Counted from the stretch's first letter, positions 1 through 16,958 are shown. The stretch: 64,000 nt of DNA from Aquabacterium sp. (GCF_041915145.1 NZ_JAYSBZ010000003.1:5831-69830); one strand, 5' to 3'. Made by a program: numbers and translations. Notes: generated by a model from the sequence alone, not told the origin.

Positions 1-2
1 CG

Positions 3-1739
<1,737 letters not shown>

Positions 1740-1755: not shown

Positions 1756-1761
1756 TCAGGA
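1756..1761. repeat. Target-site duplication copy (TCAGGA), glmS-proximal
   Basis: TCAGGA lies immediately outside the left TIR and the identical hexamer lies at 15973..15978. This fits a 5-bp Tn7-type duplication with 1 bp of positional ambiguity. Confidence 0.75.
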
Positions 1762-1790
1762 TGTTCCTTGCCAATAAAGTCGTAGACAGC
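1762..1790 (+). repeat. Terminal inverted repeat, glmS-proximal (Tn7R-like) end
   Basis: A 29-bp sequence matching the reverse complement of 15944..15972 at 27/29 positions. It begins with TGT. Confidence 0.9.
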
Positions 1791-1830
1791 GCAATATAGA
1801 GTCGTATACGCCGCAATTAAGTCGTAGACA
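1778..1830 (+). repeat. Three phased direct copies of AGTCGTA(G/T)AC(A/G), putative transposase-binding sites
   Basis: Copies start at 1778 (AGTCGTAGACA), 1800 (AGTCGTATACG) and 1820 (AGTCGTAGACA), spaced 22 and 20 bp apart. Each is preceded by a GC(C)AAT-type motif. Confidence 0.85.
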
Positions 1831-2081
1831 CGGACAGTGCCTCAACCCGCGCCGAAACTTGCTGGTAGCCTACTGCAGAGGGACATCAAAGGTTGGATGC
1901 ACGGGGCGACCGCTTGGCAGCGAAAGAGGGCCTCCCTGAGCCGCACTGCGAAAGTCGGTCGCCCTCGGAGGCTGATATCGAGCGTACTAGAGCCGCGACG
2001 CGAACCTTTTGACAGCACACATGAGCCATTACCGGAGAGCGAGAAACCGCTCAACTGAATGGTTTGCTCGGAGATCGCCGC

Positions 2082-2678
2082 TCAGTGATGTGGTGGGCTA
2101 ATAACGGCGCCGTAATCCTCCGGCAGAGGAGGAGGCACAAGGCGCGCTTCGCTCTGCGCTCGCGCCGTTTTTTCGGCGGCCTCGCGCTTGGCTGTAGCTA
2201 CTACTAGGTCAGCCCGTAGATGATGCAGCGACAGCATGCCCTCGAAGAGTCCGACCATCTTCACTAGGACGAAGGTCACGCTACCCGCGATGAAAAAGGT
2301 AACTATCGCCGACCAGCTGACGTTGATGAACCAGCGATGCATGAACAGCGGCTTAGCGTCAATCACCACAGATTTGAGCGCGGAACCAACGATTACGACC
2401 ACCAAGGCCCCGATGGTTACCCAAAGTAGACCCATCCAGTAGCGCTGCTGGCGGGTGAGCGATTTGGTGAGGCGTTCGGCTTCGTTGACGGTCAACTTGT
2501 CCGACTGAAGGAAGTTTGCCGTGATCGGCATAACTTGCACCAGCGCAGCCGCCAGGAACCCCAAGAAGGCAATGAGACCTTCTTTCATGTCCGACCAGAA
2601 CGACAAGGGCGTCCAATTGGCCGCGGCGACGCCAAGCAGCAGCGGAGCGATTACTCCCATTAGCTTCATTGGCTTCAT
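2082..2678 (-). CDS. Multi-pass membrane protein, unknown family
   Basis: A 198-aa ORF with several hydrophobic helices (VIAPLLLGVAAA, LIAFLGFLAAALVQV, LLWVTIGALVVVIVGSAL, AIVTFFIAGSVTFVLV) and a charged C-terminal tail. It is the last gene of the minus-strand operon and looks lower in GC than the backbone. Confidence 0.7.
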   Translation of the reverse strand: MKPMKLMGVIAPLLLGVAAANWTPLSFWSDMKEGLIAFLGFLAAALVQVMPITANFLQSDKLTVNEAERLTKSLTRQQRYWMGLLWVTIGALVVVIVGSALKSVVIDAKPLFMHRWFINVSWSAIVTFFIAGSVTFVLVKMVGLFEGMLSLHHLRADLVVATAKREAAEKTARAQSEARLVPPPLPEDYGAVISPPHH

Positions 2679-2744
2679 TGGTGGCTCCTTGTCGATTTCG
2701 CTCGTTCGCAGTCATGATGTCTCATGACTGGCTCGCAGTGTGAG

Positions 2745-4168
2745 CTACTGGGCGACCTCTTGAATTTTCCCATTTCCAACGAATGTGCTGTAGGCCTCAA
2801 ACATGGCTCGAAGCACGTCCGTGGGGTCGAGCAGCGAGCCCACGATTTGGCTGTCACCTTCTTGTGCACGCAACAGGCGGATATCCGCATCTCGCCCAAT
2901 CTCCTTGATGCGCGACTTCACTTCCTTGTCGTTGATCTTGTCGAAGCCAGCGAACACGGCATCGTCACCGCTGTGCTCTTCTTCCAGCTCGGTCATCGCT
3001 GCCAGCGTGCTTTCCAGCTCGGCATTCAGCCGGTCCAGCTCGGCCTGCTCGGCGGCGAAGTGGTGTTGCACCAGCAGCGCCTTGGGCACCAGGTCGCAGG
3101 CCCAGCCTTTGTCCACGGTCTTGCCGGGTGAGCCGTCCTTGTTCTTCTTGGTCTCCAGCACGCGGTAGGGCGTGGCCCTCCAGCCGTCTTCGGCGATCAG
3201 GTAAGTGTCGTCCTGCATCGTCTCGGCCCAGTAGTCCATCAGGTGCTGGTAGATGGCGTAGGGATCGATCAGCTTCTCAGCGGTGGGCTGGTGCTCGTAG
3301 TGGGCCAGCAGGCCCTCGGCACCTTTGATCAGGTCTTTCGGCTGGAAGCTGCCCTTGTCCAGCGACTTCAGGCGCTCCACGGCTGACGCGCGCCATTGGT
3401 CGAAGTGCGCGTTCATGGCCTCTGTGAAGGCCTGGAACTCTGGGTGCTGGTGGATGGTGGGCTTGATGGCCGCCGGCGCGACGGCCAAGTCCAGATAGCC
3501 CGGCCGACGAGGCTTGAAAAGGGCCGCTCGCAACTGCGGGCACACCGCCCAGTAGCGGGCCAGTGCCTGCACGTCCGCCTCCGGGATGCCACCGTTCAGG
3601 TGGGCGTCGATGTCCTGCTGGTCTTCCGGCGTGCTGCTGTCGATGTAGCGCGGCAGGTTCAGGTTGAAGTCGTTCTTTTCGATCTCTTCCAGCCCCACCA
3701 TACGGGCGTAGCGCGGGTCGCTGCCGTCCAGCGTCGTGAAGGCATCGACGATGCGGTGGATGTCGCGCTCGCGCAGCCGGTTCTTGGGGCCGTCCTTCAT
3801 GAAGCCTTGCGCGGCATCTATCATGAAGATGCCCTTGCGGGCGGCAGCGCCGGCCTTGTCGATGACGAGGATGCAGGCCGGGATGCCGGTGCCGTAGAAC
3901 AGGTTGGCCGGTAGGCCGATGATGGCCTGGATGAGGCCACGCCGCACCAGGCTCTTGCGGATCTCGGCCTCGGCATTGCCACGGAACAGCACGCCGTGCG
4001 GCAGGATGCAGGCAGCCCGGCCGGTGCTCTTGAGCGAGCGGACAATGTGCAGCAGGTACCAGAGCCATGCTCGTCGCGGATGCACTGGGCTACGAGTGAA
4101 GACAAGTGCTGCGTATCGATGGACTTGATGACTGCTGCTTCGGCTTGGGGGACATTCAGAGTACCCAT
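2745..4168 (-). pseudogene. hsdM: Type I R-M methyltransferase (HsdM-like) remnant: only the C-terminal half plus a long C-terminal extension; N-terminal catalytic part missing and a frame change near the 5' end
   Basis: Frame B (2745..4085) reads AWLWYLLHIVRSLKSTGRAACILPHGVLFRGNAEAEIRKSLV...IIGLPANLFYGTGIPACILVIDK...NDFNLNLPRYIDS, typical of the post-NPPF part of N6-adenine MTases. I found no FxGxG or NPPF/NPPY motif anywhere upstream. An SD-preceded ATG at 4168 opens a different frame (MGTLNVPQAEAAVIKSID...) that overlaps frame B. Frame B itself has only a GTG start, at 4085. Confidence 0.65.
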
Positions 4169-4229
4169 CGTTTCAACTCCTGTTCGCTGCGCTTTGATCT
4201 TTCGAGTCCGTCTGGTCAGAGCCAGGATT

Positions 4230-4724
4230 TCAGCCAGGAGACCACCGCTGAAGGCGGGCCATCACCTCTGCGCGCGGCAATCGCCGTCGTGGGTGGTTCC
4301 ATATGCGCGAGAGACCCTCATGCAACGTGGCCACGCCAACCGCGCCGGAGGCTTCCATCTGATCGAGGATCCACAGCAGCCCATAGACCGTGCAATGGCG
4401 GGCTTGCGCCTCATTGCGCAGAAGCATGTCCCCTGAAACCAGCGCATGATCCTGACGTCGGGCGCAACTGAGGGCGAAGCAGTCCGGCAACGACAAGCCT
4501 GGCCGCTGCTTGCGAACCTGTTGGGCGTAGTCCACCTCATCCGGGTTGAGAGCCACTACGCCCAGGCCAAGTCGCCGCAGCAGGGGGCCGTTCTCGGATT
4601 CAAGCTCGCGCTGATACAGCAGGTCTGGAACAACCATCGTCAGACCGCATGCGAAGGCCTGCTCCAGGAGCCCGCCTCGCTCCAGGTCGATCAAGACAGA
4701 GGTGTCTGAGACCAGGATGATCAT
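4230..4724 (-). CDS. PIN-domain nuclease-like protein
   Basis: The N-terminus is MIILVSDTSVLIDLERGG (PIN motif with the first Asp), with further conserved-looking acidic positions in LSLPDCFAL and LVSGDMLLR. The start is 6 nt after the stop of the upstream XRE-ImmA gene. Confidence 0.75.
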   Translation of the reverse strand: MIILVSDTSVLIDLERGGLLEQAFACGLTMVVPDLLYQRELESENGPLLRRLGLGVVALNPDEVDYAQQVRKQRPGLSLPDCFALSCARRQDHALVSGDMLLRNEAQARHCTVYGLLWILDQMEASGAVGVATLHEGLSRIWNHPRRRLPRAEVMARLQRWSPG

Positions 4725-4730
4725 GATCGG

Positions 4731-5798
4731 TCAGGCGAATTGACCCATCAGCCGACGATCCAGCTCGCGAACGCTGATGTTCAGTAGCTCTGCAGCTCGT
4801 GCCTCCGAAATCGCGCCCTCGGCAACGGCTCGCATGCAAAGGCGCTCCATCCGTAGTGGTACCTCCGCCTTGAGCGTGCCCGGTTCATTGGACGCTTGAC
4901 TGTTCCACCCCATGTCCTTGATCTGCGCCCACAGGCGCCCGTACACCGCTTTGGTGATGATCCCAAGCTGGGCGCATCGCACAACCAGCGATGCAATGCT
5001 GACCTTGAACAGCTTCTTCAGCTCGGCCAGCTCGCCGATGGAAATGGAGGTACGGTGGGGCCCGAGCAGCCGGAGAACCATATCCTTGGCCATCAAGAAG
5101 GCCCCAGCAAACCGATCGGCGGCCTTCTCTTGCTCGGCGTCGGTAAGACCACTGAAGCGAAGCACCAAGTGGGCAAGCTCGTGGGCCAGCGTAAACCGTT
5201 GGCGCTCCCCGTTGTGCCCTTGGTTTACTACGATCACTGGCACGTCTTGGCGTTCAGGGCGTTGAACGAAGGCCTTGGATCCGGACACGTTTTCCGGCAG
5301 GTCTAAGGCGATCACCTTGACGCCCTTGTCCTCAAGCAACTCGGCCATGAACGGGATCGGGTCAATGCCAAGCTTCCATAGCCGGCGCAAGGCGTCGGCT
5401 GCCTGCTCGGCGTCCTCGATGCTGCCAATTTCGAAAGCTTGGTTGTCCGGCGCAACCCAGAGCTGTTCCACACCGGGCAGTAGCTCCTCCAGCTCCAAGT
5501 AGCGCTCGACCTGGTCCAGTACGGATGCTTCCACGGCACGCTCCTCCTTGGCGCCGGCATGGGGCGCCTTCCGAAAGTCCACGCCCGTCAGCTCGATCTC
5601 GCGCTCACTCAACAGGTACTCAGGCGACACCTGCAAGGCCTTGGCCATCGCCAGCAGGATGGTGGAGCTCGGCATCATTTCGTCGCGCTCATACTTGCCG
5701 ATGGCCTGAGCCGAGACCTGCCCCTGGATGGCGGCCTCCAGTTCGCGCAGCGACAACCCGAGGGCCTCTCGCGCCCTCTTAAGTCGGTTTCCGATCAT
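4731..5798 (-). CDS. XRE-family HTH fused to an ImmA/IrrE-type zinc metallopeptidase
   Basis: It has an N-terminal HTH (IGNRLKRAREALGLSLRELEAAIQGQVSAQAIGKYERDE) and an HEXXH motif (FTLAHELAHLVL) in the central domain. I set the start at ATG 5798, which is preceded by GGAGAG. ORF-track entry 4731..5840 is the longer version. Confidence 0.85.
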   Translation of the reverse strand: MIGNRLKRAREALGLSLRELEAAIQGQVSAQAIGKYERDEMMPSSTILLAMAKALQVSPEYLLSEREIELTGVDFRKAPHAGAKEERAVEASVLDQVERYLELEELLPGVEQLWVAPDNQAFEIGSIEDAEQAADALRRLWKLGIDPIPFMAELLEDKGVKVIALDLPENVSGSKAFVQRPERQDVPVIVVNQGHNGERQRFTLAHELAHLVLRFSGLTDAEQEKAADRFAGAFLMAKDMVLRLLGPHRTSISIGELAELKKLFKVSIASLVVRCAQLGIITKAVYGRLWAQIKDMGWNSQASNEPGTLKAEVPLRMERLCMRAVAEGAISEARAAELLNISVRELDRRLMGQFA

Positions 5799-5891
5799 GG
5801 TGCTCTCCGCGGTGTTTGGTTTACAACTTGACGGCTCCAATTGTAGTTTGTAAACTTCCTCCCGTCAACTTCTTCGAACTGGAGGTTCGTG
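5799..5891. promoter_or_regulatory. Divergent control region with nested inverted repeats (candidate XRE operator)
   Basis: GTTTACAA (5819..5826) pairs with TTGTAAAC (5848..5855), and TTGACGG (5828..5834) pairs with CCGTCAA (5862..5868). An AACTT motif recurs 3-4 times. The region lies between the divergent XRE-ImmA and DUF2188-like genes. Confidence 0.5.
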
Positions 5892-6125
5892 ATGGCCAAC
5901 CGGAAAAACGTTCACATCGTTCAGCGCGAAAACGGCTGGGGCGCCCTCCGCGAGGGTGGGCAGCGCGCGACCCAGGTGTACGACACCCAGGCGCAGGCGA
6001 TCCAGGCTGGCCGGCAGATGGCACGCCAGGGTCAGGGCGAGCTGCTGATCCACGGCCAGGACGGGCGCATCCGGGCGCGTGACTCCTACGGAAACGACCC
6101 CTGCCCTCCGAAGGACAGCAAATGA
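5892..6125 (+). CDS. DUF2188-like small protein
   Basis: The sequence MANRKNVHIVQRENGWGALREGGQRATQVYDTQAQAIQAGRQMARQGQGELLIHGQDGRIRARDSYGNDPCPPKD matches my recollection of the DUF2188 pattern (HV.....GW......., IH..DG.I.....YG.DP.PP.D). GGAGG lies 6 nt upstream of ATG 5892. Confidence 0.7.
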   Translation: MANRKNVHIVQRENGWGALREGGQRATQVYDTQAQAIQAGRQMARQGQGELLIHGQDGRIRARDSYGNDPCPPKDSK

Positions 6126-6343
6126 TCAAGTTCGACATCAAGATGCCCAGCGCTGCCGATCTCATGCGCGCGGCAATGGCAGAGGTTGAGAGCGACATCA
6201 CCAAGAGGGCCCAAAGCGCGGCGGAACCGCACGGCGGCGTGACGGTGAGGTTCGAACGAAGTGCTGAGGGTGCAATCAGCGCCGTCAACTTCCAAGGGTC
6301 CGAGGCTGCCGTCGAGGCAGCCAGGGCTGCGATCGCCGACTGA
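6122..6343 (+). CDS. Hypothetical protein (73 aa)
   Basis: It has an ATGA start/stop overlap with the preceding gene and high-GC third positions. No family recognised. Confidence 0.55.
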   Translation: MIKFDIKMPSAADLMRAAMAEVESDITKRAQSAAEPHGGVTVRFERSAEGAISAVNFQGSEAAVEAARAAIAD

Positions 6344-6357
6344 AGCGGGCGCAGGAA

Positions 6358-6639
6358 ATGAGCGGCTGGCTTGAAGAGTTCTGGATAGTGCTCTGCCACT
6401 CAAGTAGGACACAGCTTGCGATCGCCTCCGGCCTGTTCTTCTTTGTCGGCATCTTGCTGATGGGGCAGGTTTTCGTCGGCAGTCTTGAGTTGCATGGTCC
6501 TTTGGCGGCACTCACCGGCGTTGTCCGGGAGAAGCTCATGCACCGTTACGACAAGGCGGCCTGGGCAGCGCTTGCCAGTTTCGGGCTGCTTGCCGTCAAG
6601 ACTTACCGCAAGGATCGCCGCCACCTTCTCGGGGCCTGA
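6358..6639 (+). CDS. Small membrane protein (about 2 TM)
   Basis: AGGA lies upstream of ATG 6358. Hydrophobic segments are LAIASGLFFFVGILLMGQVFV and AAWAALASFGLLAV. Confidence 0.5.
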   Translation: MSGWLEEFWIVLCHSSRTQLAIASGLFFFVGILLMGQVFVGSLELHGPLAALTGVVREKLMHRYDKAAWAALASFGLLAVKTYRKDRRHLLGA

Positions 6640-6670
6640 CAACCAGCAAACAATCACAAAGGGAGATCTC

Positions 6671-7033
6671 ATGGCCTGCGCAGCTGAACACGCCGCCTTC
6701 AATTTCGTCGCGGTTATGGCCGCAACCGCCGCTGTGCAACAGCACAACGGGCGCCCCGTCGAGGGGTCTGCACTTGCCATGGGGGCGGCAGCAGCGCTGC
6801 TGCCCTCACTTCCTGATGTCTTGGAGCCTGCGATCCATCCGAATCACCGCCGGTTCTTTCACAGTTTGACGTTCGCCATTGCAGTCGGATATGGCCTCCA
6901 CAGGGCGTATAAGTGGGAGGCGCAGGAGCCGTGGGAGCAGTTGGCTAGGATGGTAGCGCTGGTGGCCGGCGCTGCGTATCTGGCGCATCTGGCGCGCGAT
7001 GCATTCACCGCCCGTTCCTTGCCATTGGTTTGA
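6671..7033 (+). CDS. Short membrane protein with a YdjM/DUF457-like metal-hydrolase motif
   Basis: GGGAG lies upstream of ATG 6671. The motif LPDVLEPAIHPNHRRFFHSLTFA resembles the D...H..HR..THS signature of DUF457. The protein is 120 aa, shorter than typical family members. Confidence 0.4.
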   Translation: MACAAEHAAFNFVAVMAATAAVQQHNGRPVEGSALAMGAAAALLPSLPDVLEPAIHPNHRRFFHSLTFAIAVGYGLHRAYKWEAQEPWEQLARMVALVAGAAYLAHLARDAFTARSLPLV

Positions 7034-7090
7034 TCGTTGCTGACCTTCAGGAAAGTTGGCGGCTGCTTCTGACCCAAATAGGAAGTGATC

Positions 7091-7936
7091 ATGGAGTTTG
7101 GCACGTCTTCCATTTCGTTTGTCCGTCGCGGGTTTCGTTGGATTTACGGCGTGGTCGAAAAGATCATGTGCCAGCGGGCCTACGAGATCTCCACGCTCTA
7201 TCACGACCATCGTGAACTGGTTGAGACAAAGCCGCGTCCATTGGGTGAGCATGTCGGCTACCGACTCTACTGGCAGGAGTTTCTCCAGGGACAGCGGCAA
7301 CTGGCACCGACGATCGAAGTGTGCGCCATAGGCAAATCACGGCTCTCCAAGGTCGTCATCGCGGTCACAGCGTCGAATGACATGGTTTGCTTTCAGAATG
7401 AGGTGGTGATGCGGCATGTGGACACACGGCGGCATCGCGCGCCACTCTCGTCAATACCCTTCCGGCGACCGAGAATCGATGGCGGACTGGTCTATACGCC
7501 CTACGATGAATTTCATATCGAACTCATTGAGGTACTCGACGAACGCGGTGGGTGCATAACACCAAGATGGTCGACAAAAGATGTAATCCACCCGATGGAC
7601 CGACTTGAGGTCGCGCTCGGGCAAGAGCGTGATTTCGTCGAAAAATGGGGGCAAACCTACAACCTGAGCTTCCTTGAGATGGAAATTCGGGAAGAGGCTG
7701 TTCGAATGTTTGCCTGGTCTTTCCGCAAATCCCATGTCCTGCGCCTGCTCCTGCGTCCTCTTCAGAGCCACACTATGGCGAAGGCCATCTTTTGGAGTAG
7801 GAACGCACTGCGTGCAGCCCCGCTTGAACGCGCATTCATTCGTCACATCGAAGAGTACAGAGACTATCTGGCGCGACAAGCTGATCGCAGCATGACGCCT
7901 CTCGCTGAAACCGTGGCTGAAACGAATATGTCATGA
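7091..7936 (+). CDS. Hypothetical protein (281 aa), translationally coupled to jetA
   Basis: AGGAAG lies 7 nt upstream of ATG 7091. Its stop TGA (7934..7936) overlaps the jetA ATG (7933..7935) as ATGA. No domain recognised by eye, and it looks lower in GC than the jet genes. Confidence 0.65.
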   Translation: MEFGTSSISFVRRGFRWIYGVVEKIMCQRAYEISTLYHDHRELVETKPRPLGEHVGYRLYWQEFLQGQRQLAPTIEVCAIGKSRLSKVVIAVTASNDMVCFQNEVVMRHVDTRRHRAPLSSIPFRRPRIDGGLVYTPYDEFHIELIEVLDERGGCITPRWSTKDVIHPMDRLEVALGQERDFVEKWGQTYNLSFLEMEIREEAVRMFAWSFRKSHVLRLLLRPLQSHTMAKAIFWSRNALRAAPLERAFIRHIEEYRDYLARQADRSMTPLAETVAETNMS

Positions 7937-9369
7937 CCACGGCATTCTTCATCGGTAAGCGGGAACAATTTTTCCGACCGCTGACCCATGGCGACCGCGA
8001 GTGTTGCGCTGCCGTTCTGCGCAGTCTGTACGACCGCGTGCAAGGCCCGAATGCGGACTACTCCGAGGCGCTGACCCGTGATCTGGTGTTGACCATCGTC
8101 TTTCAGGTCCTGGCTGATCCATCCCTGAGAGCTGTCGTGTTCGAGCCAGGTCGCACGGTATCGGCCGAGGATGAGCGGACCTATGCGGGTGAACTGTTAC
8201 GCAAGCTGAAGGAGCATGGCTGGATCGAGGACTACAAGGACCCGATCGACCTCAAGCCCACGCTGAAGATGACGCGGGCCGGCAAGGAGGTGTCCGAGGT
8301 CCTGTCTAACCTCGACAACTCCCGGGCCCGCACCCGCCAGAGGAACATGCGGTCCGCGAAGAAGGCTCTCGCCGCGTTCGTCGCCAGCCAGGACGTGGAC
8401 GAACTGCTCGATGGCTACGACTTTGCCGCGCGGGTGGTGCAAGACCTGCAGGACGACATCGAGTACTTCCGCCTGCTCATCCAAAGCCTGACGCGCGAGG
8501 CCCTGGAACAGAAGGTCGCGTGGAGCGAATTCAACGAGTTCATCGAGAAGCGCTTTGCCAAGGAATATGCGGTCCGCCTCGTGGCCGACTCTGCGGAGCG
8601 GCACCGCGGACAGATCGTGGAGCTGCTGGACCAGATCCGGTTGATGCCGGAGGCGGCACGCCTGGGCGTGGATGCCAACCTGCTGCAGCGCGCGTCGTGG
8701 CTGGAGGCGCAGGTGCAGTCTCGCAGCCCCACCCTGTGGCTGTGTGATCGTATGGAAAGCATGGTCGAAGCCGCTTGCAACCTGAAGTTGCCCATGCTGC
8801 GGTCCGAGATGAACAACTATGTCCGGCGGTTCACCAGCTTGCTGCGGCAGGCGCTTTCCCTGGACTACAGCGCGACATCACCGCTGGGTCGGGCGATGAG
8901 CTTGCTGAAAGAACAGCCGCAACCGGAGCGCGAAGATTTCCTGGATGCCCTGGCGGCCCGATTGGGGACGGCAGAGCTGAGACTGCCCGGCGCCGCGTTG
9001 CGTTGGACGGTGCGCGACCGCGAGGCCGAACACGGCCCGCTTGCTCCCCTGATCGTGGACGAGGCCAGTCGTATCGAGGCAGCCATGCGCCGGGCCGAAG
9101 CCGAAGCCTTTGCCTTCAGCGACCAGGAAGTGCTGGCTGGATTGCTGCCCCATCTGCGCGACGGACGGGTGTCCCTGGACCAACTGCCCATCAACAATGC
9201 AGTCGAGGCGGTGCGTGTCATGCATGCCGTGGGTGCTGCTCGCTCCAGCGAGGGGAAGCGTTTCCTGAAGGCCCGCAAGAAGGCAGAGGTGTTCGATACG
9301 CCGTACTTCTCCGCAGACAACTTCGAGCTGGAAGCCGATCTGTCGGCGCTGGCCCGTGGTGACACTTGA
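7933..9369 (+). CDS. jetA: Wadjet JetA (kleisin-like subunit)
   Basis: A 478-aa protein, first of four overlapping genes whose sizes (478/248/1225/404 aa) and order match jetABCD. It has no enzymatic motif, as expected for JetA. The call rests on operon context. Confidence 0.7.
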   Translation: MTTAFFIGKREQFFRPLTHGDRECCAAVLRSLYDRVQGPNADYSEALTRDLVLTIVFQVLADPSLRAVVFEPGRTVSAEDERTYAGELLRKLKEHGWIEDYKDPIDLKPTLKMTRAGKEVSEVLSNLDNSRARTRQRNMRSAKKALAAFVASQDVDELLDGYDFAARVVQDLQDDIEYFRLLIQSLTREALEQKVAWSEFNEFIEKRFAKEYAVRLVADSAERHRGQIVELLDQIRLMPEAARLGVDANLLQRASWLEAQVQSRSPTLWLCDRMESMVEAACNLKLPMLRSEMNNYVRRFTSLLRQALSLDYSATSPLGRAMSLLKEQPQPEREDFLDALAARLGTAELRLPGAALRWTVRDREAEHGPLAPLIVDEASRIEAAMRRAEAEAFAFSDQEVLAGLLPHLRDGRVSLDQLPINNAVEAVRVMHAVGAARSSEGKRFLKARKKAEVFDTPYFSADNFELEADLSALARGDT

Positions 9370-10102
9370 TTGGCCGATCCACATGCTGCTATCTCTCCAA
9401 CAGGTCATCGAAGAGCGGCTGAAGACCGAAGGCGCAGGCAACGTCAAGTCGGACCGGTTCGCCGAGCTCGCGGGGCGGCTGATGGCCTCGGGTGTCTTGT
9501 GGCGAGACTATTCCCGCCCCGAGTCTGAGCTGTATGACGACGCCGCACAGTGCGAGCAACTGCTGCGCGAGTACTTCTCAACGATCGGCTTCGTCCTGAC
9601 GCACGATGCCGACGCGACGATATTCCGCCTGTATCCGCCCGGCGAAGGGGGTGACGGCGACGAGGACGGCGTGAAGCGGCTGAAGGCGCGGCTGTCGCGT
9701 GACTTTGTGGCCGCGGCCATTGCCCTGCGCTTCCTGTACACCGAGGCGCTGACCGGCAAGCGTGAGCTGATCAATGAAGTGCTGGTGATCAGTCTGGAGG
9801 AGCTTTCCCAGTCGGTCGTATCGCTGTTGGCGCACCAGCTTCCGTCTTCGGTGGCCGACCGCCTCTCGCTGCTGAGAGACCTGCGCAAGCACCGCATCGT
9901 GCGCTTCAACGATGGTGAAGGTGCCGGCGGCATGGAGATGCTTCTGAGCGTTCTTCGGCCCGTGATGAGCTACGTGAGCGACGAGGCGCTGGAGGATGCG
10001 CTCGCGCTGGCCGCGCAAGCCGTTGCGGGGCGCGCGAAACGTGGACAGTCCGCGGAGACCCGGACTGACGCACCCGAGGTGCCGGCGGAGGAGAGCCGAT
10101 GA
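9356..10102 (+). CDS. jetB: Wadjet JetB (KITE-like subunit)
   Basis: A roughly 240-250-aa acidic protein between jetA and jetC. Its stop overlaps the jetC start (ATGA at 10099). The start is uncertain: GTG 9356, overlapping the jetA end, or ATG 9383. Confidence 0.7.
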   Translation: MVTLDWPIHMLLSLQQVIEERLKTEGAGNVKSDRFAELAGRLMASGVLWRDYSRPESELYDDAAQCEQLLREYFSTIGFVLTHDADATIFRLYPPGEGGDGDEDGVKRLKARLSRDFVAAAIALRFLYTEALTGKRELINEVLVISLEELSQSVVSLLAHQLPSSVADRLSLLRDLRKHRIVRFNDGEGAGGMEMLLSVLRPVMSYVSDEALEDALALAAQAVAGRAKRGQSAETRTDAPEVPAEESR

Positions 10103-13100
10103 AGATCTCCAAGCTCATCACCTGGCAATGGGGTTCGCTGGAGGCCAGGGAGTGGCCATTTGCCGACACGGTGTTGCTGACGGGCGAGTCGGGATCGGGC
10201 AAGTCGACCTTGCTGGACTCGATCCAGACGCTGCTCACAGCGGCGCACCACCACCTGGTGCAGTTCAACATCGGCCAGGACGAATCCACGCAAAGCCGGC
10301 GTGGTGGCAAGGAGCCTCGAACCTTAGCTGCCTACGCACTCGGTCAACAAGCTGACGGCGTCTTCCTGCGCAAGCGTTCGACGAGTTACGTGGCGCTGGT
10401 GTTCGAAGCCTCGGAAGGCGCGGGCGAAGAGGCGCAAGCCCTGACGGCCCTGATTGGCGTTGAGGCACACGAAGACGCTGCCAAGGCGGTGTTGTCACGC
10501 AGTCTCTTCTTCATCGTGCGCCGTGCGCTCGACCTGCAGCAGCTTCTACTGCGCACCGCAGACGGAATGCAGCCCGTTCCTGTGCCGGTCAAGGATCTCT
10601 ACCTGCATCTGCAACACCAACTGCGGGTTGGCCCCGAGGTCGTGCAGCGCTTCGAGGACAAGAGCAGCTACCTCACGCACCTGTACGGCGCCATGATGGG
10701 CAAGACGGCGGTATCGGAGCCTGAAGCCTTCCGTGCCGCGAAGTCGATCGTGAAGGCCATGGCCTACAAGGAGCTCGGAAACGTCAACGACCTGGTTCGA
10801 GACGAGATCCTGGATGCGCACGACTTCAGTCGCGACCTGGACAAGATGCGCGAACTGATGCGATCGATGGCCAGTCTCAAGGCTGAGGCCGAGCGCTTGC
10901 AGCAGAACATCGAGCGACTGGAATCCGTCGAGGCCGCAGCCACACGTGTCATCGACGATGCTCGCCGCTATGTCGTGCACTGCATCGCCCACTCGATCCG
11001 GGCATTGGACGAGGCTGAGACCGATCTGGAGTCCGTGCGTCGGCAGATGAAGTTCCAGCACAAGCGCAATCAGTTGCTGGAAGAGCGGCTGCAGGGCTTG
11101 CGCGAGGGCCAGGCGCAGCTGAATGAACAGTTGGACGGCATCAAGGCCAAACTCGCCGCCAGCGACGTGGCACAACGCAAGTCGGCGTTGGAGAGCGAGG
11201 TACGCACACTCCAGGACCAGTTCCGTCGTCACTGGGCAGCCATAGGTCAAGCCGCCAAAGGTCTGGCCAGCATGGTGGCCCAGATGGAGCGCCTGCTCGG
11301 CTTGGATCTTGCGGAAGCGCCGGCGCTGGAGGCTGCAGTGGCGGCGCTCCGACCGGCGGCCCAGGCCGTTCTGAAGCCGTGGCCTGAACTGTTTGCCATG
11401 TGCAGCCAGGAGGCCAGGCTGGACGCCGTGTTCCCGGCCTTTGACCTGGAAAGCTTCGACGGAGACCTCGGCCGGCTGGAACATGGGATCCGTGGCCATG
11501 ACGAGGCGCTGGCCGGCGCGGTCGTCATGGCCTTGACGACCGCGGGTCAGCAACTGGCCACCCTGGCGGACGACAAGGCGCAGCGCGACGCTGAATTGCG
11601 CCAGCTGCAGGCTGGCAAACCTCCTGCGCCTCCGGATGTGCGCACGGCTCTCGACCTGATCGAGCGAGAGCTGCCGCAGGCGCGGCCGCACATCCTGTCC
11701 CAACTCGTCGAACCCAAGGAGGGCAGCAGCTGGCAGAACGCGATCGAGGGCTACATGGGCGGCGACCGCTTTGCCTTGATCGTGGAGGCGGGATTCGAAG
11801 CGCCTTGCACACGCCTGGTGAAACGCCGGTTTCCTGTCCGCTCACCGAAGGTCGTGCAAGGAAGCAAGGCGATCGAAGACACGCGAGGTCGCTCGCTGGA
11901 TGCGCGAGCGGTGCTGAACGAGTTGGTCTGCCCGCACCCGGTGGCCAAGGCCTTCCTGCTTGCTCAGTACGGCAGGGTGCGCAAAGTGGACTCCGAGGAC
12001 GAGCTCGCACGAACACCCCAAGGTTTGATGGAGGAAGGCATCGGCAGCCGGGGCTACGGCATGTTCTCTTGCCGGGCATCCGACCACGACCTAGCTTTCG
12101 GCGAGGCAACGCGAAAGCGGCGTCTGGCCTGGTGCGAGCAGGAGTTGTCGCGCCTGACCGTGGAGATCCGCAAGATCGAGCATCTCCAGAGCTCGTTGAA
12201 CCTGGTCCTGCGCATGTTCAACGGTGCTGCATTCACAGCCTTGGCGCCCTTGATGGAGGCTGTCCTCAGCAGCCAGCTGCAGTATTCCCATGCCGCACAG
12301 GCGCTTGCAGCGTTGGATCTGTCAGCGATCGAAGACCTGGAGGCGCAGCGGCGCCAGATCGAGGCCAGCATCGGTGAGTCCAAGAAGGCGTACGACACGG
12401 AAATTCTGCAGGTCGGCGAGAACAACAAGACCCTGAAGGACATGGGGGGGCGCGAGAAGATCCTGGTGGACCGAATTCCAGCCCTGCAGTTGGAACGCAC
12501 CAATGCCATGGTCTGGGCCAGCCGCTTCGTCCAGGGCGCGCCGGAACTTGCGACCGAGTCGCAGTTGATCGATGAGGCCAGAGACCTCGCCGACAGTGCC
12601 GAGGTGACACTCGACGCGCTGCGTCATCGGGTCAGCGTTCTCGTTGAACGATTGCCCACATCGTTGCGCGAGCTGTCTTCTTGCGTCCAGACCTACCTGG
12701 TCGGCGTTCGAAATGACCAAGAGCGGTTCCTGTACACCGACCCGCCCAAGAGTTTCGACCGCATCGAGGCACTGCTGCCGCCCGTGATCGGGCTGCGACA
12801 GGTCGTGACCGAGCAGACACGTCGTCAACGGTCCATCGGCCTGGCCGAGAACCTGACGAAACTGAGAGAGGCGGAGTCCAGCTTCAACGCGGTGTTCACC
12901 ACCAGCTTCTGCTTCAAGGTGCGCGATGAAGTTCGCCAGGGGGCATCCACGCTGCAGAAGCTCAACCGGGAGTTGAAGAACATCCGATTCGGCACCGACA
13001 CCTTCGAGCTGGAATGGGCTTGGGTGCCGCGGCTGCAAAAGGTGTTCGAGTTCTTCGAGGCCATGGAAGGATTGGTGGACAGTCTGGAGAAGGACAGCGG

Positions 13101-13776
13101 ATCCATCTTCGACTCACCCAGGCTGAGTGACGAGCACCGGCTGACGGCACAGGACATCCGTCGCTTGTTGCTGGCCAATGACCAAGGCGCCTCGGAGCGT
13201 GCCCTGAAGGAACTTGCTGACTATCGCAACTACCGCCGCTATGACATCATCCGGCACAGCCCTGTCGGGCAGACCAAGTTGTCCACCTGGGGCACCGGAT
13301 CGGGTGGCGAGCTGGAAACACCGTTCTACGTCATCCGCTCAGCCGTGTTGGCACACGCGCTCGGGCACTTCGGCCGTGATCGCCGCGGCGCGCCGGCCCT
13401 GCGCCTGATGTTGTCAGACGAGGCGTTCTCCAAGATGGATGAGTCTCGGTCCCGCAGCGTGCTTCAGTTCTTGTCGCGGAGCCTGGGCTTGCAGCTGGTG
13501 GTGGCCATGCCGACTTCAAAGTCCGGGGCCGTCAAGCCGGAGTTCGACAAGGAGTTCACCTTCTCCAAGGTGCTGGCTTCCCGTGATGGCGCCGAGCTGT
13601 TCGTCAGCGAGGTTCAGGAGAAGACGCTCAAGCGTGAGCCCTTGGCCAGGCTCTGGGCAGCCCACGCGGAGCAAGCCCGGGAATCCGGGCGACTGGCTCA
13701 CGAAGCCATGCAACGAGGGAACGCGCCGTCTGAAATTTCGGACATGCCGAGACCGGTGACAGGCGGAGATGACTGA
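10099..13776 (+). CDS. jetC: Wadjet JetC (SMC/MksB-like ABC ATPase)
   Basis: It has an N-terminal Walker A (LLTGESGSGKSTLLDSIQ), a roughly 900-aa predicted coiled-coil middle rich in E/Q/L/R, and a C-terminal Walker B (LRLMLSDEAFSKMDE). Length is 1225 aa. Confidence 0.9.
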   Translation: MKISKLITWQWGSLEAREWPFADTVLLTGESGSGKSTLLDSIQTLLTAAHHHLVQFNIGQDESTQSRRGGKEPRTLAAYALGQQADGVFLRKRSTSYVALVFEASEGAGEEAQALTALIGVEAHEDAAKAVLSRSLFFIVRRALDLQQLLLRTADGMQPVPVPVKDLYLHLQHQLRVGPEVVQRFEDKSSYLTHLYGAMMGKTAVSEPEAFRAAKSIVKAMAYKELGNVNDLVRDEILDAHDFSRDLDKMRELMRSMASLKAEAERLQQNIERLESVEAAATRVIDDARRYVVHCIAHSIRALDEAETDLESVRRQMKFQHKRNQLLEERLQGLREGQAQLNEQLDGIKAKLAASDVAQRKSALESEVRTLQDQFRRHWAAIGQAAKGLASMVAQMERLLGLDLAEAPALEAAVAALRPAAQAVLKPWPELFAMCSQEARLDAVFPAFDLESFDGDLGRLEHGIRGHDEALAGAVVMALTTAGQQLATLADDKAQRDAELRQLQAGKPPAPPDVRTALDLIERELPQARPHILSQLVEPKEGSSWQNAIEGYMGGDRFALIVEAGFEAPCTRLVKRRFPVRSPKVVQGSKAIEDTRGRSLDARAVLNELVCPHPVAKAFLLAQYGRVRKVDSEDELARTPQGLMEEGIGSRGYGMFSCRASDHDLAFGEATRKRRLAWCEQELSRLTVEIRKIEHLQSSLNLVLRMFNGAAFTALAPLMEAVLSSQLQYSHAAQALAALDLSAIEDLEAQRRQIEASIGESKKAYDTEILQVGENNKTLKDMGGREKILVDRIPALQLERTNAMVWASRFVQGAPELATESQLIDEARDLADSAEVTLDALRHRVSVLVERLPTSLRELSSCVQTYLVGVRNDQERFLYTDPPKSFDRIEALLPPVIGLRQVVTEQTRRQRSIGLAENLTKLREAESSFNAVFTTSFCFKVRDEVRQGASTLQKLNRELKNIRFGTDTFELEWAWVPRLQKVFEFFEAMEGLVDSLEKDSGSIFDSPRLSDEHRLTAQDIRRLLLANDQGASERALKELADYRNYRRYDIIRHSPVGQTKLSTWGTGSGGELETPFYVIRSAVLAHALGHFGRDRRGAPALRLMLSDEAFSKMDESRSRSVLQFLSRSLGLQLVVAMPTSKSGAVKPEFDKEFTFSKVLASRDGAELFVSEVQEKTLKREPLARLWAAHAEQARESGRLAHEAMQRGNAPSEISDMPRPVTGGDD

Positions 13777-14983
13777 GGCCTGGTTCCAACCGACGGGATC
13801 ACCCGGTGACCTTGGTCCGCCACGCGATCCGATGCTCTTGCGTGTCGCCTCCCGGCTGCTCGCCAAGGCCGAGCGTTCAAACGACCCGCGCAGCACGCGG
13901 CTGAGGCTGGATCAGCGCGAGTTGCCCGAATTGCACGGGCAAGTCCATGCAGAGGCCGTCGGCCGCGTGGAATTGCTGCTGCGGGAGTTGTGCGGCACGG
14001 GGTGGGTCCGGTTGATCCTGGCCCCAGAGCGGGAGTTTGCCGGCTTCGTCGATCGCAAGCCACAGCTGGAGTTGATGGATTTCGATGCCCTGGCGGCATG
14101 GGCTGGCTACGCTCGTCGGGCGGACCACTGGCAGCGCCGTCTCGCCGCGCATCTCGAACAACACTGGGTAGATTCCGACGATGGTGCGAAGCGGTCGCTG
14201 ATCGACTACCTGAACCGCAGCCCTCTCTCTGCGCTGTCGACGGTTTCCACCGAGGAGGCCGCGCGCTGCCTTCACGACCTCCGAGAGCTGTGCCTGTCCG
14301 GGGCGGCCATGCCGTTGCGCGAGGCATCGGCGCGTGTGTTCCACGGCAGATCGAAGGTGCTCGACACCAGAGACGAACTGCTGCGGCTCCTGGGTGCGAC
14401 ACCCGGGCAGTTTTGGGAGGCGCCCATACAGTTGCTGATCGATGTTCCTGCCTTCTTCGACGAGGCGCTGTTCATCGAGAACCTGGTGACCTTTGAACGG
14501 ATGGCGGACGCGAGAGCGCCCGAATGGCAGCACAGCCTCCTGGTCTATGCCGCCGGCTTCAAGGGGAGTGCGAAGCGTCTTCGACATCGCGGTGGTTGTC
14601 GGGTTTACCTCCGGACGGCGATGACCGGTGCGCTGTCGGTGGACCCGCCCTCGGCACGAGGTCTGGCTGTTGTCAGCGATTGGCTGTTTGATCGCGCAGA
14701 TCTTCCTGTACGGTTCTTCGGCGACCTGGACTACGCCGGCATGCAGATCCTTGCCAGCCTGAGAGAGGTGTTTCCCGATGCGATGGCTTGGCAGCCGGGC
14801 TATGCAGACCTCCTGGCGGTCCTTGCTTCAGGCGGAGGGCATATCCCGGAGACGGCGAACAAGGAGCGGCAGGCAGACCCTGAAACCACGGGGTGTGCTT
14901 ACGCAGACGAAGTTCTTCTGACCGCACTTCGCGGTGCTGGGCGGTTCGTTGACCAGGAGGCGTTCGGGGCGGATCGGCAGTGA
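13769..14983 (+). CDS. jetD: Wadjet JetD (Toprim-type nuclease subunit, DUF2220-like)
   Basis: It overlaps the jetC end by 8 nt. The C-terminal motif VRFFGDLDYAGMQILASLR is the GDxD Toprim signature typical of JetD/MksG. Length is 404 aa. Confidence 0.85.
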   Translation: MTEAWFQPTGSPGDLGPPRDPMLLRVASRLLAKAERSNDPRSTRLRLDQRELPELHGQVHAEAVGRVELLLRELCGTGWVRLILAPEREFAGFVDRKPQLELMDFDALAAWAGYARRADHWQRRLAAHLEQHWVDSDDGAKRSLIDYLNRSPLSALSTVSTEEAARCLHDLRELCLSGAAMPLREASARVFHGRSKVLDTRDELLRLLGATPGQFWEAPIQLLIDVPAFFDEALFIENLVTFERMADARAPEWQHSLLVYAAGFKGSAKRLRHRGGCRVYLRTAMTGALSVDPPSARGLAVVSDWLFDRADLPVRFFGDLDYAGMQILASLREVFPDAMAWQPGYADLLAVLASGGGHIPETANKERQADPETTGCAYADEVLLTALRGAGRFVDQEAFGADRQ

Positions 14984-15034
14984 TTTTCGGTCGCTGCTGA
15001 CGAACCGGTCGGTGATGCCTCCGCATTGAACGTG

Positions 15035-15070
15035 GCGAAGCGCGACCGTCTCCGGCCGCTTCGCTGTTTG
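15035..15070 (+). terminator. Possible weak intrinsic terminator after jetD
   Basis: GCGAAGCG (15035..15042) pairs with CGCTTCGC (15057..15064) around a 14-nt loop, followed by TGTTTGTGT. The T-tract is poor. Confidence 0.35.
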
Positions 15071-15132
15071 TGTGGGGCATCAGCCAGCGCATCCATGCGC
15101 CAGGGCTGAGCCATCTCGTCGAGAGGTGCGCC

Positions 15133-15822
15133 ATGGCAGCAAGCGGTGTGACGTTCAAGCGCTTCCTGGATTCACGACGGAAGGACTTGCGCCGCATCGC
15201 CGCGCAGACCTGCGGCGAGTGCATGATCGACGACGTCTGCTCCGAGGCCTGGCTGGTCGCCGACGAGATTTCCAGGAAGCGCGGCTTCGCAGTCGACTTT
15301 CTGAACACGGACGACCAGGAGCAGTTGCTGTCCTGGCTTTATGTTCGCCTGGTGCGCTACGCGGACAAGAGCGTTCGCTACGCAGTCAAGCTGGATCGGG
15401 ATTGGGACTCTGAAGATGCGGACTCTGCCGCTGGGGCGCTCGCCCGCCTGTTGACGGCCCCCGAGCAATTCGATCCGCTGAAGCGGCTCATTGAGGAGGA
15501 AAACCGGTTCGACCCGATGGCGCTGATCCAGTACAGCTACTCCCAGGCCTCTGCGTACGTGATCCTCCTGCATCGGTTCGATTGGGACTTGGCAAACCTG
15601 GCCGATCATCTGCGCGTCGTGGTGGCGACGCTCAGAACCAAAGTCTGTGCGAGCGGTGCCTGGATGGCCAACCAGCCATCGCTTTTCGACCGGATCAACA
15701 CCGTCGAGTTGGACTTCTCGCCGAGGCTGGCCAAGCGCTACGCACCGGGCAAGAATGTTGAATCCAGCCAAGCCCAACTGGCTTGGTGTACGCCGGACTG
15801 GACCCCAGCCATCGAGGCGTAG
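15133..15822 (+). CDS. Hypothetical protein (229 aa) with faint ECF-sigma/HTH-like features
   Basis: GAGAGG lies upstream of ATG 15133. DDVCSEAWLVADEI...LLSWLYVRLVRYADKSVR resembles sigma region 2, and ANLADHLRVVVATLRTKV resembles a region-4 HTH. The resemblance is weak and unverified. Confidence 0.5.
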   Translation: MAASGVTFKRFLDSRRKDLRRIAAQTCGECMIDDVCSEAWLVADEISRKRGFAVDFLNTDDQEQLLSWLYVRLVRYADKSVRYAVKLDRDWDSEDADSAAGALARLLTAPEQFDPLKRLIEEENRFDPMALIQYSYSQASAYVILLHRFDWDLANLADHLRVVVATLRTKVCASGAWMANQPSLFDRINTVELDFSPRLAKRYAPGKNVESSQAQLAWCTPDWTPAIEA

Positions 15823-15832
15823 CGATTGGGCT

Positions 15833-15956
15833 TGTCTACGACATCCCTGCTGATCGGGCCTCAGGCCCTCGAGCGCGTCGTGGACTGTCTACGACTTCGC
15901 TGTTGATGGCCCACCCGAAACGCTGTGTCGCTTACCTGGCGGAGCTGTCTACGACT
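15833..15956 (-). repeat. Three spaced copies of TGTCTACGAC(T), the inverse of the left-end motif, at the distal (Tn7L-like) end
   Basis: Copies lie at 15833..15842, 15886..15896 and 15946..15956, spaced 53 and 60 bp apart. The latter two are exact reverse complements of AGTCGTAGACA. Confidence 0.85.
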
Positions 15957-15972
15957 CTATTGGCAACGAACA
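15944..15972 (-). repeat. Terminal inverted repeat, distal end
   Basis: Its reverse complement, TGTTCGTTGCCAATAGAGTCGTAGACAGC, matches 1762..1790 at 27/29 positions. Confidence 0.9.
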
Positions 15973-16958
15973 TCAGGAGCAATCAAGCCGCCGGCCCGTA
16001 GCCAGTCTTCCGTGCGGGCCATGCCGACAGCCAGATCGATCGCCGGCCGGTAGCCCAGCACGGATCGCGCCTTGTCGATGCTGTAGCCCGCCTCTCGAGC
16101 CAGCATGGCCAAGGACGACGCGCTGACTTCTGTCTGCCGTCTGCAAACGTCGTGCAACCACCACTCGGTCAGGCGCGTCAGGCCTTGGGCCAGCGGCGTG
16201 GCCAATTTGACGGGCCCCCTGCGACGACGCAGCCAGCGGTGGTGATGGGCAAAGAACTGCTCGCAAGGCGTGTCGGTTCCGTCGGTCAGATTGAATATCT
16301 GGCCCGCGGCGCGCGCGCTCGCGGCGGCCGCCACGATGCCGTCGAGCAGGTTGTCGATGTAGACCGGGCTGAACACGCCGCGACCGTGGCGCGGGAGCAG
16401 GAACAGGTTCTTGCGAATCAGCTCCAGCGGGATCAGCACCCAGGGGCGAGAGCCCGGCCCGTAGACGTCGCCCGGGCGGATGATCGTGCAATCGATTTCG
16501 CCCGCGGCGTGCGCGGCCAGCACGGCGTGTTCGCTCGCCGCCTTGGCGTCGCAGTAGGGGTGGCCGCTCAGGGTGACGATCGGCGACGATTCGTTGCGCG
16601 TCGTGGTGAAGTCCAGACCATACGCCGCGATGGACGAGATGTGCACGAAGCGCGAGGCGCCGCCTTGCATGGCCGCGTCCAGCACGTGGCGCACGCTGCC
16701 GACGCTGACGCTTTGATAGAGATGCGCGGGCGCGCTGTTGGACACCACGGCCGCCGCATGCACGACCAAGTCGCAGCCGCGCGCCTGCCGCTGCCACGAC
16801 CCCGGCTGCGCGACGTTCCCGGCGCACACCTGGCGTGACGGGTCGGCATGGAGATCGATGCCGCAGACCTCGCTGCCCAGCAACTGATAGCGCACCATCA
16901 GCGCGCGCCCGATGAAGCCGTTGGCTCCGGTGATGCAGATTTTTCGGGGAGCGCTCAT
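15957..16958 (-). CDS. NAD-dependent epimerase/dehydratase family protein (3' end supplied by the transposon TIR)
   Basis: The N-terminal Rossmann motif is KICITGANGFIGRAL. The last 4 codons and the stop (15957..15971) lie inside the element's TIR. Confidence 0.85.
   Translation of the reverse strand: MSAPRKICITGANGFIGRALMVRYQLLGSEVCGIDLHADPSRQVCAGNVAQPGSWQRQARGCDLVVHAAAVVSNSAPAHLYQSVSVGSVRHVLDAAMQGGASRFVHISSIAAYGLDFTTTRNESSPIVTLSGHPYCDAKAASEHAVLAAHAAGEIDCTIIRPGDVYGPGSRPWVLIPLELIRKNLFLLPRHGRGVFSPVYIDNLLDGIVAAAASARAAGQIFNLTDGTDTPCEQFFAHHHRWLRRRRGPVKLATPLAQGLTRLTEWWLHDVCRRQTEVSASSLAMLAREAGYSIDKARSVLGYRPAIDLAVGMARTEDWLRAGGLIAPDVRCQ
15973..15978. repeat. Target-site duplication copy (TCAGGA), distal
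   Basis: Identical to 1756..1761 and immediately outside the TIR. Confidence 0.75.

Follow-up and report, generated by a model that had tools for sequence, protein, structure and literature searches.

In Escherichia coli, the right tip of Tn7 lies 25 nt past the glmS stop codon, and the TnsB sites of the element (GACAATAAAGTCTTAAACT) are arranged asymmetrically, as a compact array of four toward glmS (at about 10, 30, 51 and 71) and a dispersed array at the far, left end (starting at about 10, 74 and 130). The canonical target duplication of the Tn7 family is 5 bp, and Tn7-like elements normally keep tnsA in the region next to the right end. Here we describe a 14.2-kb element of Aquabacterium sp. 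that spans positions 1762-15972 of a 64-kb stretch (NZ_JAYSBZ010000003.1:5831-69830, called the window throughout) and is bounded by 29-nt inverted repeats. It reproduces the layout of Tn7 almost in register: its right tip lies 22 nt past the glmS stop (22-25 nt in the family to which it belongs), its repeats (CCAATAAAGTCGTAGACA) are similar to the TnsB sites of Tn7, three of them are packed at the right end, and the cores of the left-end repeats lie at 17, 77 and 130. The likeness extends to the TGT/ACA tips, a short target duplication and the presence of defence cargo, which has been reported for thousands of Tn7-like elements (PMC8649781). In contrast to Tn7, however, the window element is without tnsA, tnsB, tnsC, tnsD and tniQ, its duplication is 6 bp, and the gene beside its right end is not tnsA but a cargo gene transcribed toward the tip. 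As set out below, this is almost certainly a Tn7-family element that lacks all of the tns genes.

The architecture has parallels in several other systems. In the wider Tn7/Tn5053 superfamily, the tni-defective Tn402/Tn5053 derivatives (such as class 1 integrons) have kept both inverted repeats, have lost tni, carry adaptive cargo and can be mobilised in trans by the proteins of a related element; these derivatives belong to another subfamily, which has no TnsA, is targeted to res sites and typically carries antibiotic-resistance cargo, and remnants of tni usually remain visible in them, whereas the window element holds no tns remnant and carries defence cargo. Miniature inverted-repeat transposable elements, mobile insertion cassettes and the Tn3-derived inverted-repeat miniature elements resemble the window element in having terminal repeats without a transposase, in being spread by helpers and, in some cases, in carrying passenger genes, but they are usually under 1-3 kb and depend on single-protein transposases with little target specificity, while the window element is large, would depend on a multi-protein machine and occupies one chromosomal site. 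The tnsABCD-tniQ2 elements of the Burkholderiales come from the same bacterial order, have at least one copy at attTn7 and a related site core, and are found stacked against tns-less ends; unlike the window element, they are autonomous, have another class of terminus and, in one case (locus L052), are reversed toward glmS. The ends-only architecture is shared most directly with the laboratory mini-Tn7, in which Tn7L and Tn7R surround a cargo and TnsABCD comes from a helper plasmid, although the window element is natural, 14.2 kb long and part of a diversified family in several genera. Mini-Tn7 constructs that insert at attTn7 with the transposition proteins provided in trans have been used, for example, in two studies (PMC11014353, PMC10304964).

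Non-autonomous derivatives are thus known for many transposon families, and mini-Tn7 works in the same way; within the searchable literature, a natural tns-less Tn7 family appears to be new. We found there no description of natural Tn7-like elements with both ends but no tns genes, although a prior mention is possible. A survey of 6,549 Tn7-like elements was seeded on hidden Markov models of the core Tn7 transposition proteins (PMC8649781), and since such surveys start from tns genes, a family that consists of ends alone escapes their catalogues.

The boundaries of the element and the genes that flank it are as follows.

1-1739, plus strand: glmS, its 5′ end cut by the window; two Pfam SIS domains and GATase_6/7, with 73-82% DNA identity to glmS in 10 related loci.
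1740-1761: attTn7-type spacer of 22 nt, placed by its position relative to the glmS stop; its last 6 nt, TCAGGA, are the left copy of the target duplication.
1762-1832, plus strand: right-end-type terminus, with a TGT tip and three close TnsB-site-like repeats (cores 1778-1788, 1800-1810 and 1820-1830; 2-nt insertion at about 1795-1797).
15828-15972, minus strand: left-end-type terminus, with an ACA tip and three widely spaced repeats (cores 15946-15956, 15886-15896 and 15833-15843).
15973-15978: right TCAGGA copy of the target duplication, read from the sequence.
15957-16958, minus strand: NAD-dependent epimerase (Pfam), convergent with glmS; its last 4 codons and stop lie inside the left end.

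The terminal sequence TGTTCCTTGCCAATAAAGTCGTAGACAGC at 1762-1790 agrees with the reverse complement of 15944-15972 at 27/29 positions, and the TGT/ACA tip is kept in the 22 family ends that were aligned. With up to one mismatch, the motif AGTCGTAGACA occurs six times in the 64 kb, compared with an expectation of 0.3, and none of 100 shuffles reached six; five of the six matches fall at the two ends of the element, which argues against a common repeat family of the repetitive extragenic palindromic (REP) type. At both ends, two of the three copies are exact and the third is degenerate (AGTCGTATACG at 1800-1810 near glmS, TGTCGTAGACA at 15833-15843 at the distal end). Measured from the tip, the cores begin at 17/39/59 on the glmS side and at 17/77/130 on the distal side, so that the repeats are packed 20-22 nt apart at one end and spread 53-60 nt apart at the other. 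The original prediction had given the terminal repeats and their tips, the asymmetric spacing with the compact end at glmS, the flanking TCAGGA and the 22-nt distance from the stop codon (TGA at 1737-1739, tip at 1762), and all of these hold, including the Tn7-like character of the ends in the direct comparison with E. coli Tn7. One of its statements on the ends holds in part only: three repeats are indeed present at each end, but not as three copies of one motif. The target duplication lies at 1756-1761 and 15973-15978, and the bases that touch the tips (CAGGA-TGT and ACA-TCAGG) make this perfect duplication 6 bp, which is atypical for the family and does not fit a 5-bp reading. The 3′ coding end of glmS carries the presumed TnsD recognition region. 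The GC content of the element (55-65%, against about 70% in the flanks) points to a foreign origin. Its left end is 80% identical to an A. soli left end in locus L004.

The right end of the window copy departs from the family in one respect. Between its first and second repeats (window 1792-1801) there is a 2-nt insertion (CAATATAGAG vs CAATAGAG), which gives a spacing of 22/20, compared with 20/20 in all 17 other right ends of the family alignment, including that of locus L056 at the same chromosomal site. This insertion may impair the loading of TnsB on the window copy.

The distal flank bears what appears to be a signature of the insertion. The epimerase is 100% identical to an Aquabacterium sp. 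protein (the exact protein occurs on contigs of the same strain only, and the next homologue is at 68%), and its last four residues, VRCQ, together with the stop codon, are encoded by the element, whereas 11/11 homologues end about 6 residues earlier. Removal of the element and one TCAGGA copy in silico places a stop directly after ...APD and yields an epimerase of 329 aa; the homologues are 326-328 aa long in 10/11 cases and 348 aa in the eleventh. Such a C-terminal extension is what an insertion would predict. In the reconstructed empty site, the stop codons of glmS and of the epimerase lie 12 nt apart, so that the point of insertion at attTn7 falls where the adjacent gene ends; the predicted junction reads ...GATCGCGCCCCGTCAGTCAGGAGCAATCAAGCCGCC....

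We found no transposition gene between these ends. Searches of the element against Pfam, one open reading frame (ORF) at a time, gave no TnsA, rve/TnsB, TniB/TnsC, TniQ or TnsD. A six-frame scan of 105 stop-to-stop segments (every one that has 45 codons or more and lies outside the Wadjet operon described below, together with the four jet genes of that operon; E <= 0.01; complete family listing) matched 21 Pfam families, none of them Tns-related and none an integrase or recombinase family. By tblastn with 30 probes, comprising TnsA-E of canonical Tn7 from an E. coli chromosome and 25 Tns proteins from five Burkholderiales elements, neither a tns gene nor a helper was detected in the 64-kb window, although the E. 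coli probes, as a positive control, detected independent Burkholderiales tns loci at 1e-16 to 1e-56. One TnsD probe gave a marginal match within jetC (E = 0.009), which we set aside as noise of the coiled-coil type. With no match to any Tns family or probe, the window holds neither tns genes within the element nor a nearby helper, as had been proposed for the element from its ORFs alone; of the roughly 15 internal ORFs counted at that stage, about half are real genes and the rest are shadow ORFs of high-GC DNA. Because it encodes no Tns protein, we file the element as a non-autonomous derivative rather than as a full member of the Tn7 family.

The window copy is not alone. A scan for exact matches to its terminal 21-mer in 185,579 species-representative genomes and a metagenome collection recovered 10 genome stretches and 11 metagenome stretches, carried by Aquabacterium, Limnohabitans, Rhodoferax, Thiomonas, Hydrogenophaga and unclassified Burkholderiales; there was no match to the right end in the plasmid collection and no copy of the 21-mer in viral contigs. 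At 14 distinct junctions, a right-type end is found 22-25 nt past a glmS stop codon; the compact end faces the gene in every case, the spacers cannot be aligned, and the repeats of the family are offset from the tip by 17/37/57 at the right end and 17/77/130 at the left. When 18 right ends were aligned, conservation was near-perfect over about 68 nt and stopped abruptly past the third repeat. Consistent with this, tblastx showed that the window element has only its ends in common with other members of the family, the interiors being unrelated. A second complete tns-less member was found in Rhodoferax sp. OV413; it is 6.65 kb long and has both types of end, with a clean 5-bp duplication (TCTAG) 18 nt past the glmS stop. 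A tblastn search of the interiors of about 15 members, some 57 kb that include 12 right-end-proximal regions, detected no tns homologue. None of the 21 stretches with the terminal 21-mer holds tns genes inside matching ends, a result that covers exact 21-mer matches in species-representative genomes and so does not prove absence. The window element is therefore a member of an end-defined Burkholderiales family in which mostly defence cargo turns over, and all sampled members are tns-less. Its two ends are intact, it has no transposase, and several copies stand in different flanks; apart from the two complete copies, the others are seen in part.

The cargo of the other members includes YgjP and HsdR of a type I restriction-modification (R-M) system in L003 and L054, HerA-SIR2-YgjP in L012 and L010, a DUF4011 helicase in L016 (the best homologue in the collection is at 78%, and the exact protein is absent there), and an ABC-ATPase/methyltransferase in the Rhodoferax family member. 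Judging from the fused HsdR-HerA frame of the Rhodoferax member, described below, the family members share an ancestral cargo that deletions have eroded. Just inside a family right end at glmS, L018 (417-3136) carries transposase genes of the IS3, IS630 and IS21 families; such invasion by insertion sequences fits a survey in which about 30% of Tn7-like elements were reported to carry them (PMC8649781).

Some of the copies are nearly identical at their right ends. The first 1,120 nt of the window element are 99.4-99.5% identical in three other loci, and the 198-aa protein encoded beside the right end is identical on four other contigs. The sequences outside the right-end tip in the three loci are as follows.

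L056: flank outside the right-end tip the same as in the window.
L054 (SRR34831197): a different glmS allele (...GTCGAATGA) and a different spacer of 25 nt outside the tip.
L055 (DRR783860): a third spacer, of 22 nt, outside the tip.

At the L054 and L055 junctions, 25 nt of glmS are only 88-92% identical to those of the window, and the spacers cannot be aligned. The presence of a near-identical right-end module at different glmS alleles indicates that one lineage inserted at the attTn7 site of at least three hosts very recently and independently. Past position 2883, the copies of the L054/L055 type carry different genes, namely a 359-aa gene, YgjP and HsdR. The window ORF that resembles hsdM (2745-4085) and the unrelated 359-aa gene (L054:2746-3825) have only their last 46-47 codons in common, at 98% identity; this common tail looks like an intragenic recombination breakpoint beside the conserved right-end module. 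With only these last codons shared, the cargo is mosaic right up to the module.

Between its ends, the window element carries the following features.

1836-2081: non-coding stretch of 246 nt inside the right end, 99.4% conserved with L054-L056.
2082-2678, minus strand: multi-pass membrane protein of 198 aa, of unknown function, the protein found identical on 4 other contigs.
2745-4085, minus strand: 5′-truncated type I methyltransferase (hsdM) fragment, matching Pfam N6_Mtase over positions 163-310/311 only.
4230-4724, minus strand: PIN-like/DUF3368 protein of 164 aa, paired with the regulator upstream; weak Pfam PIN match, PF11848 on the identical L053 gene, weak PADLOC PDC-S70 match.
4731-5840, minus strand: HTH_3 + Peptidase_M78 (IrrE/RmrA-like) regulator-protease; PADLOC RmrA at 2.6e-53.
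5892-7033, plus strand: four small genes, a DUF2188 gene (5892-6125), two unknowns and a YdjM-like gene (6671-7033), by Pfam.
7091-7936, plus strand: protein of 281 aa whose stop overlaps the jetA start (ATGA); no match in Pfam, PADLOC or NCBIfam.
7933-14983, plus strand: complete type I Wadjet operon, with jetA (7933-9369), jetB (9383-10102), jetC (10099-13776) and jetD (13769-14983).
15133-15822, plus strand: unknown protein of 229 aa beside the left end, with no family assignment.

The defence cargo that had been claimed for the element is borne out by the Wadjet operon. Its assignment rests on Pfam matches to JetA (1e-15), DUF4194/MksE (4.5e-16), AAA_29 and SbcC_Walker_B (in jetC) and JetD_C, and on a PADLOC match to JetD1 (2.5e-124); the four ORFs overlap or abut, and the gene calls are also present in L053. 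JetABCD constitutes an intact type I Wadjet anti-plasmid system, and the 281-aa protein that precedes it is possibly an uncharacterised Wadjet accessory. The cluster of small genes at 5892-7033, one of which encodes the YdjM-like membrane protein, separates the regulator operon from the divergent Wadjet operon. A look-up of the 229-aa protein returned the same contig as its sole match.

The methyltransferase ORF, on the other hand, is incomplete. It is without its first ~300 residues, and Pfam, PADLOC and TIGR00497 match the C-terminal part alone: positions 300-693 of 810 are covered in PADLOC MTase_I, and positions 346-503 of 515 in TIGR00497, under the curated cutoff. The six-frame scan contained no family match to an HsdS or HsdR partner. 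The fragment is a deletion scar, a remnant of type I R-M rather than a complete system. A comparable structure lies beside the right end of the Rhodoferax sp. OV413 element (L006:4146-5687), where residues 49-233 of a 514-codon frame correspond to the HsdR C-terminus and residues 269-509 to the HerA C-terminus; this chimaera is a deletion scar, and it connects the Rhodoferax element with the cargo HerA-SIR2-YgjP-HsdR, which L012, L003 and L054 have in intact form. Two other proposals were considered and rejected. For a hidden RNA part such as a guide RNA, Rfam finds none (best E = 0.38, in jetC), and the 246-nt stretch folds no better than shuffles (z = 0.62); the 198-aa protein next to the right end, as a mobility factor, is a multi-pass membrane protein without a family match.

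In L007, a right end of the family stands tail-to-tail, 2 nt from TGTCGTTGATTGACTAAAGTTGTGGATA, with tnsA and tnsB beyond it. The homologues of this TnsA mark out a large family of Burkholderiales elements whose core is tnsA-tnsB-tnsC-tnsD-tniQ2 (L025-L052), found in Hydrogenophaga, Acidovorax, Variovorax and Duganella; the TnsA clusters are named Acidovorax and Hydrogenophaga, which carries no information on co-occurrence within the host genomes. In L052 (18107-18225), a tns-bearing element lies at attTn7, 24 nt from the glmS stop, and its left-type end on the tniQ2 side faces glmS, opposite to Tn7; this reversed orientation would explain the tail-to-tail junctions of right ends, if such an element inserts beside a resident tns-less cassette. 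In at least five independent contexts (L007, L039-46, L041, L027 and L047), ends of the tns-less family or of a sister type adjoin the tnsA side within 1-6 nt, and an identical TnsA protein (P0081) is adjoined by arrays of two different site types. We read this adjacency as the probable stacking of successive arrivals at attTn7; if that is correct, the two kinds of element are unlikely to share target immunity, and so unlikely to share a TnsB. Most tnsABCD-tniQ2 copies are without TGT at their own tip. Their TGGATAA-type sites lie upstream of tnsA only, and within 10 kb no inverted or direct site arrays that could mark a left end were found. The plasmid collection held no match to the Burkholderiales TnsB.

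Foreign Tn7-type ends were seen tip-first, 1-6 nt from a conserved CGTTGATTGAC block upstream of tnsA, at L039:4200-4330, L041:190-325, L027:7350-7455, L007:40-170 and L047:9870-10000, and the ends in this position fall into four site classes (AGTCGTAGACA, AGTCGTAAACA, AGYCTGAGRCA and GGYCTGTCGGAAAA). In L010 (1493-1535), L014 (8095-8200) and L022 (3262-3305), the outer flanks of family ends contain directly adjoining termini that belong to a sister family with sites of the AAAGTCGTAAACA type, which shows that several Tn7-like elements are stacked in tandem at the same locus. L022 and L021 each hold a solo right end, considered further below, and the outer flank of the one in L022 differs from that in L021.

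Taken together, we consider it probable that the element consists of Tn7-family ends and cargo without tns genes and belongs to a non-autonomous lineage that is mobilised in trans. Insertion would be carried out by a machine of the TnsABC+TnsD type, in which TnsD would read the 3′ end of glmS, TnsB would bind the AGTCGTAGACA-type repeats and join the CA-3′ ends, and TnsC would bridge the two. Since the element encodes no Tns protein, we infer that the machinery must have come in trans, from an autonomous Tn7-like element whose TnsB is compatible. The element would then behave as a mini-Tn7 of natural origin that carries defence systems (Wadjet in this case) from host to host. In a wider and more tentative form of this proposal, the elements with AGTCGTAGACA-type ends may constitute an obligately transposase-less Tn7 satellite, which hijacks the TnsABC+TnsD of another element, occupies attTn7 and trades defence cargo (Wadjet, type I R-M, SIR2-HerA, DUF4011 helicase and ABC-ATPase/methyltransferase) across Burkholderiales genera. 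Of the two possibilities raised by the original prediction, a shuttle for defence genes or a decayed copy, the data on the lineage (a second tns-less copy, about 57 kb without tns and the 99.4% identical modules) favour the shuttle, although the window copy also shows decay. Several observations speak against mobilisation in trans, and most of them are equally what would be expected if the elements were fossils, in which an autonomous tnsABCD element inserted at attTn7, lost tns by internal deletions and persists as an immobile, vertically inherited island whose ends are young and intact. Both complete copies contain gene fragments, namely the hsdM fragment in the window and the HsdR-HerA fusion in Rhodoferax, so that deletion has been active and could also have removed the tns genes. 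Moreover, the repeat arrays are truncated in L003, L010, L012 and L014, and in L021 (12300-12386) and L022 (3175-3261) a solo right end with four repeats (17/37/57/77) is followed by housekeeping-type genes (LrgB, FixG-like and aminotransferases). The version with the complete Wadjet operon was found in one host background only, no helper lies within the 64-kb window, and the window copy has its unique 2-nt right-end insertion as well as a 6-bp rather than a 5-bp duplication. In view of the internal deletion scars and the change in spacing, the window copy itself is probably mobilisable weakly, if at all. In addition, the L054 and L055 contigs end after 2-5 kb, and tns genes could lie deeper inside. 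The fossil explanation is, however, rather unlikely. Not one tns gene or fragment is present in the ~57 kb of interior from about 15 members, though fragments of cargo genes persist; tns genes are missing from both complete copies, which come from different genera and each have an intact duplication; the ends hardly differ between genera, whereas the spacers and interiors next to them cannot be aligned; and the right-end module that is 99.4% identical at three glmS alleles implies very recent movement of the lineage.

A cognate helper with matching ends was found neither among the 21 stretches that carry the terminal 21-mer nor among the recovered tns elements, which also weighs against mobilisation. 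It is conceivable that the helper is the Burkholderiales tnsA-tnsB-tnsC-tnsD-tniQ2 family itself, with a TnsB that tolerates AGTCGTAGACA sites and a TnsD that directs the cassette to glmS. This family belongs to the same order, encodes a TnsD-domain protein and has one copy 24 nt from a glmS stop; its site core AAAGTTGTGGATA has 10/13 positions in common with AAAGTCGTAGACA, and the tns-less or sister ends adjoin its tnsA side within 1-6 nt. We nevertheless consider this improbable. The tns-bearing elements have a terminus and site class of their own (TGTCGTTGATTGAC...GTTGTGGATA, GTT(G/A)TGGATA), which differs from that of the tns-less family down to the terminal 8 nt (TGTCGTTG...GTTGTGGATA vs TGTTCCTT...GTCGTAGACA), and in experiments with CRISPR-associated transposons (CASTs) diverged classes of TnsB site were generally orthogonal, which prevented cross-mobilisation (PMC9723613). 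Furthermore, the two site types that adjoin TnsA P0081 mean that adjacency is not co-evolution, insertion beside a resident end speaks against shared target immunity and a shared TnsB, and none of the proteins of this family is encoded in the window. At the other extreme, the region could be no transposon at all but a recombination hotspot or defence island at glmS, bounded by a REP-like repeat or brought in by a site-specific recombinase; the DNA downstream of glmS is a known hotspot for islands, and here the cargo varies between genomes while the flanking repeats are conserved. This explanation is effectively refuted by the concentration of five of the six motif matches in 64 kb at the ends of the element, the TGT/ACA tips and asymmetric Tn7 layout, target duplications that differ between copies, a distance from the glmS stop that stays fixed at 22-25 nt across unalignable spacers, and the lack of any integrase or recombinase family in the six-frame scan.

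The family poses a problem of pairing, namely which TnsB reads AGTCGTAGACA, and the answer bears on the rules of the compatibility groups on which orthogonal Tn7 and CAST tools depend. Should the elements prove to be fossils, they would show that Tn7 ends can persist after the transposition genes are gone, as markers of attTn7 islands that could not otherwise be traced to their origin. If they are moved in trans, on the other hand, they would be a natural counterpart of the laboratory mini-Tn7 and would parasitise a transposition machine that is built from several proteins and specific for its target site. They would also provide a route by which complete defence systems, such as the intact Wadjet operon described here, enter new hosts at a chromosomal site that is both safe and conserved universally, and if the elements do form a transposase-less satellite of Tn7, the traffic of defence genes through attTn7 could be substantially underestimated.

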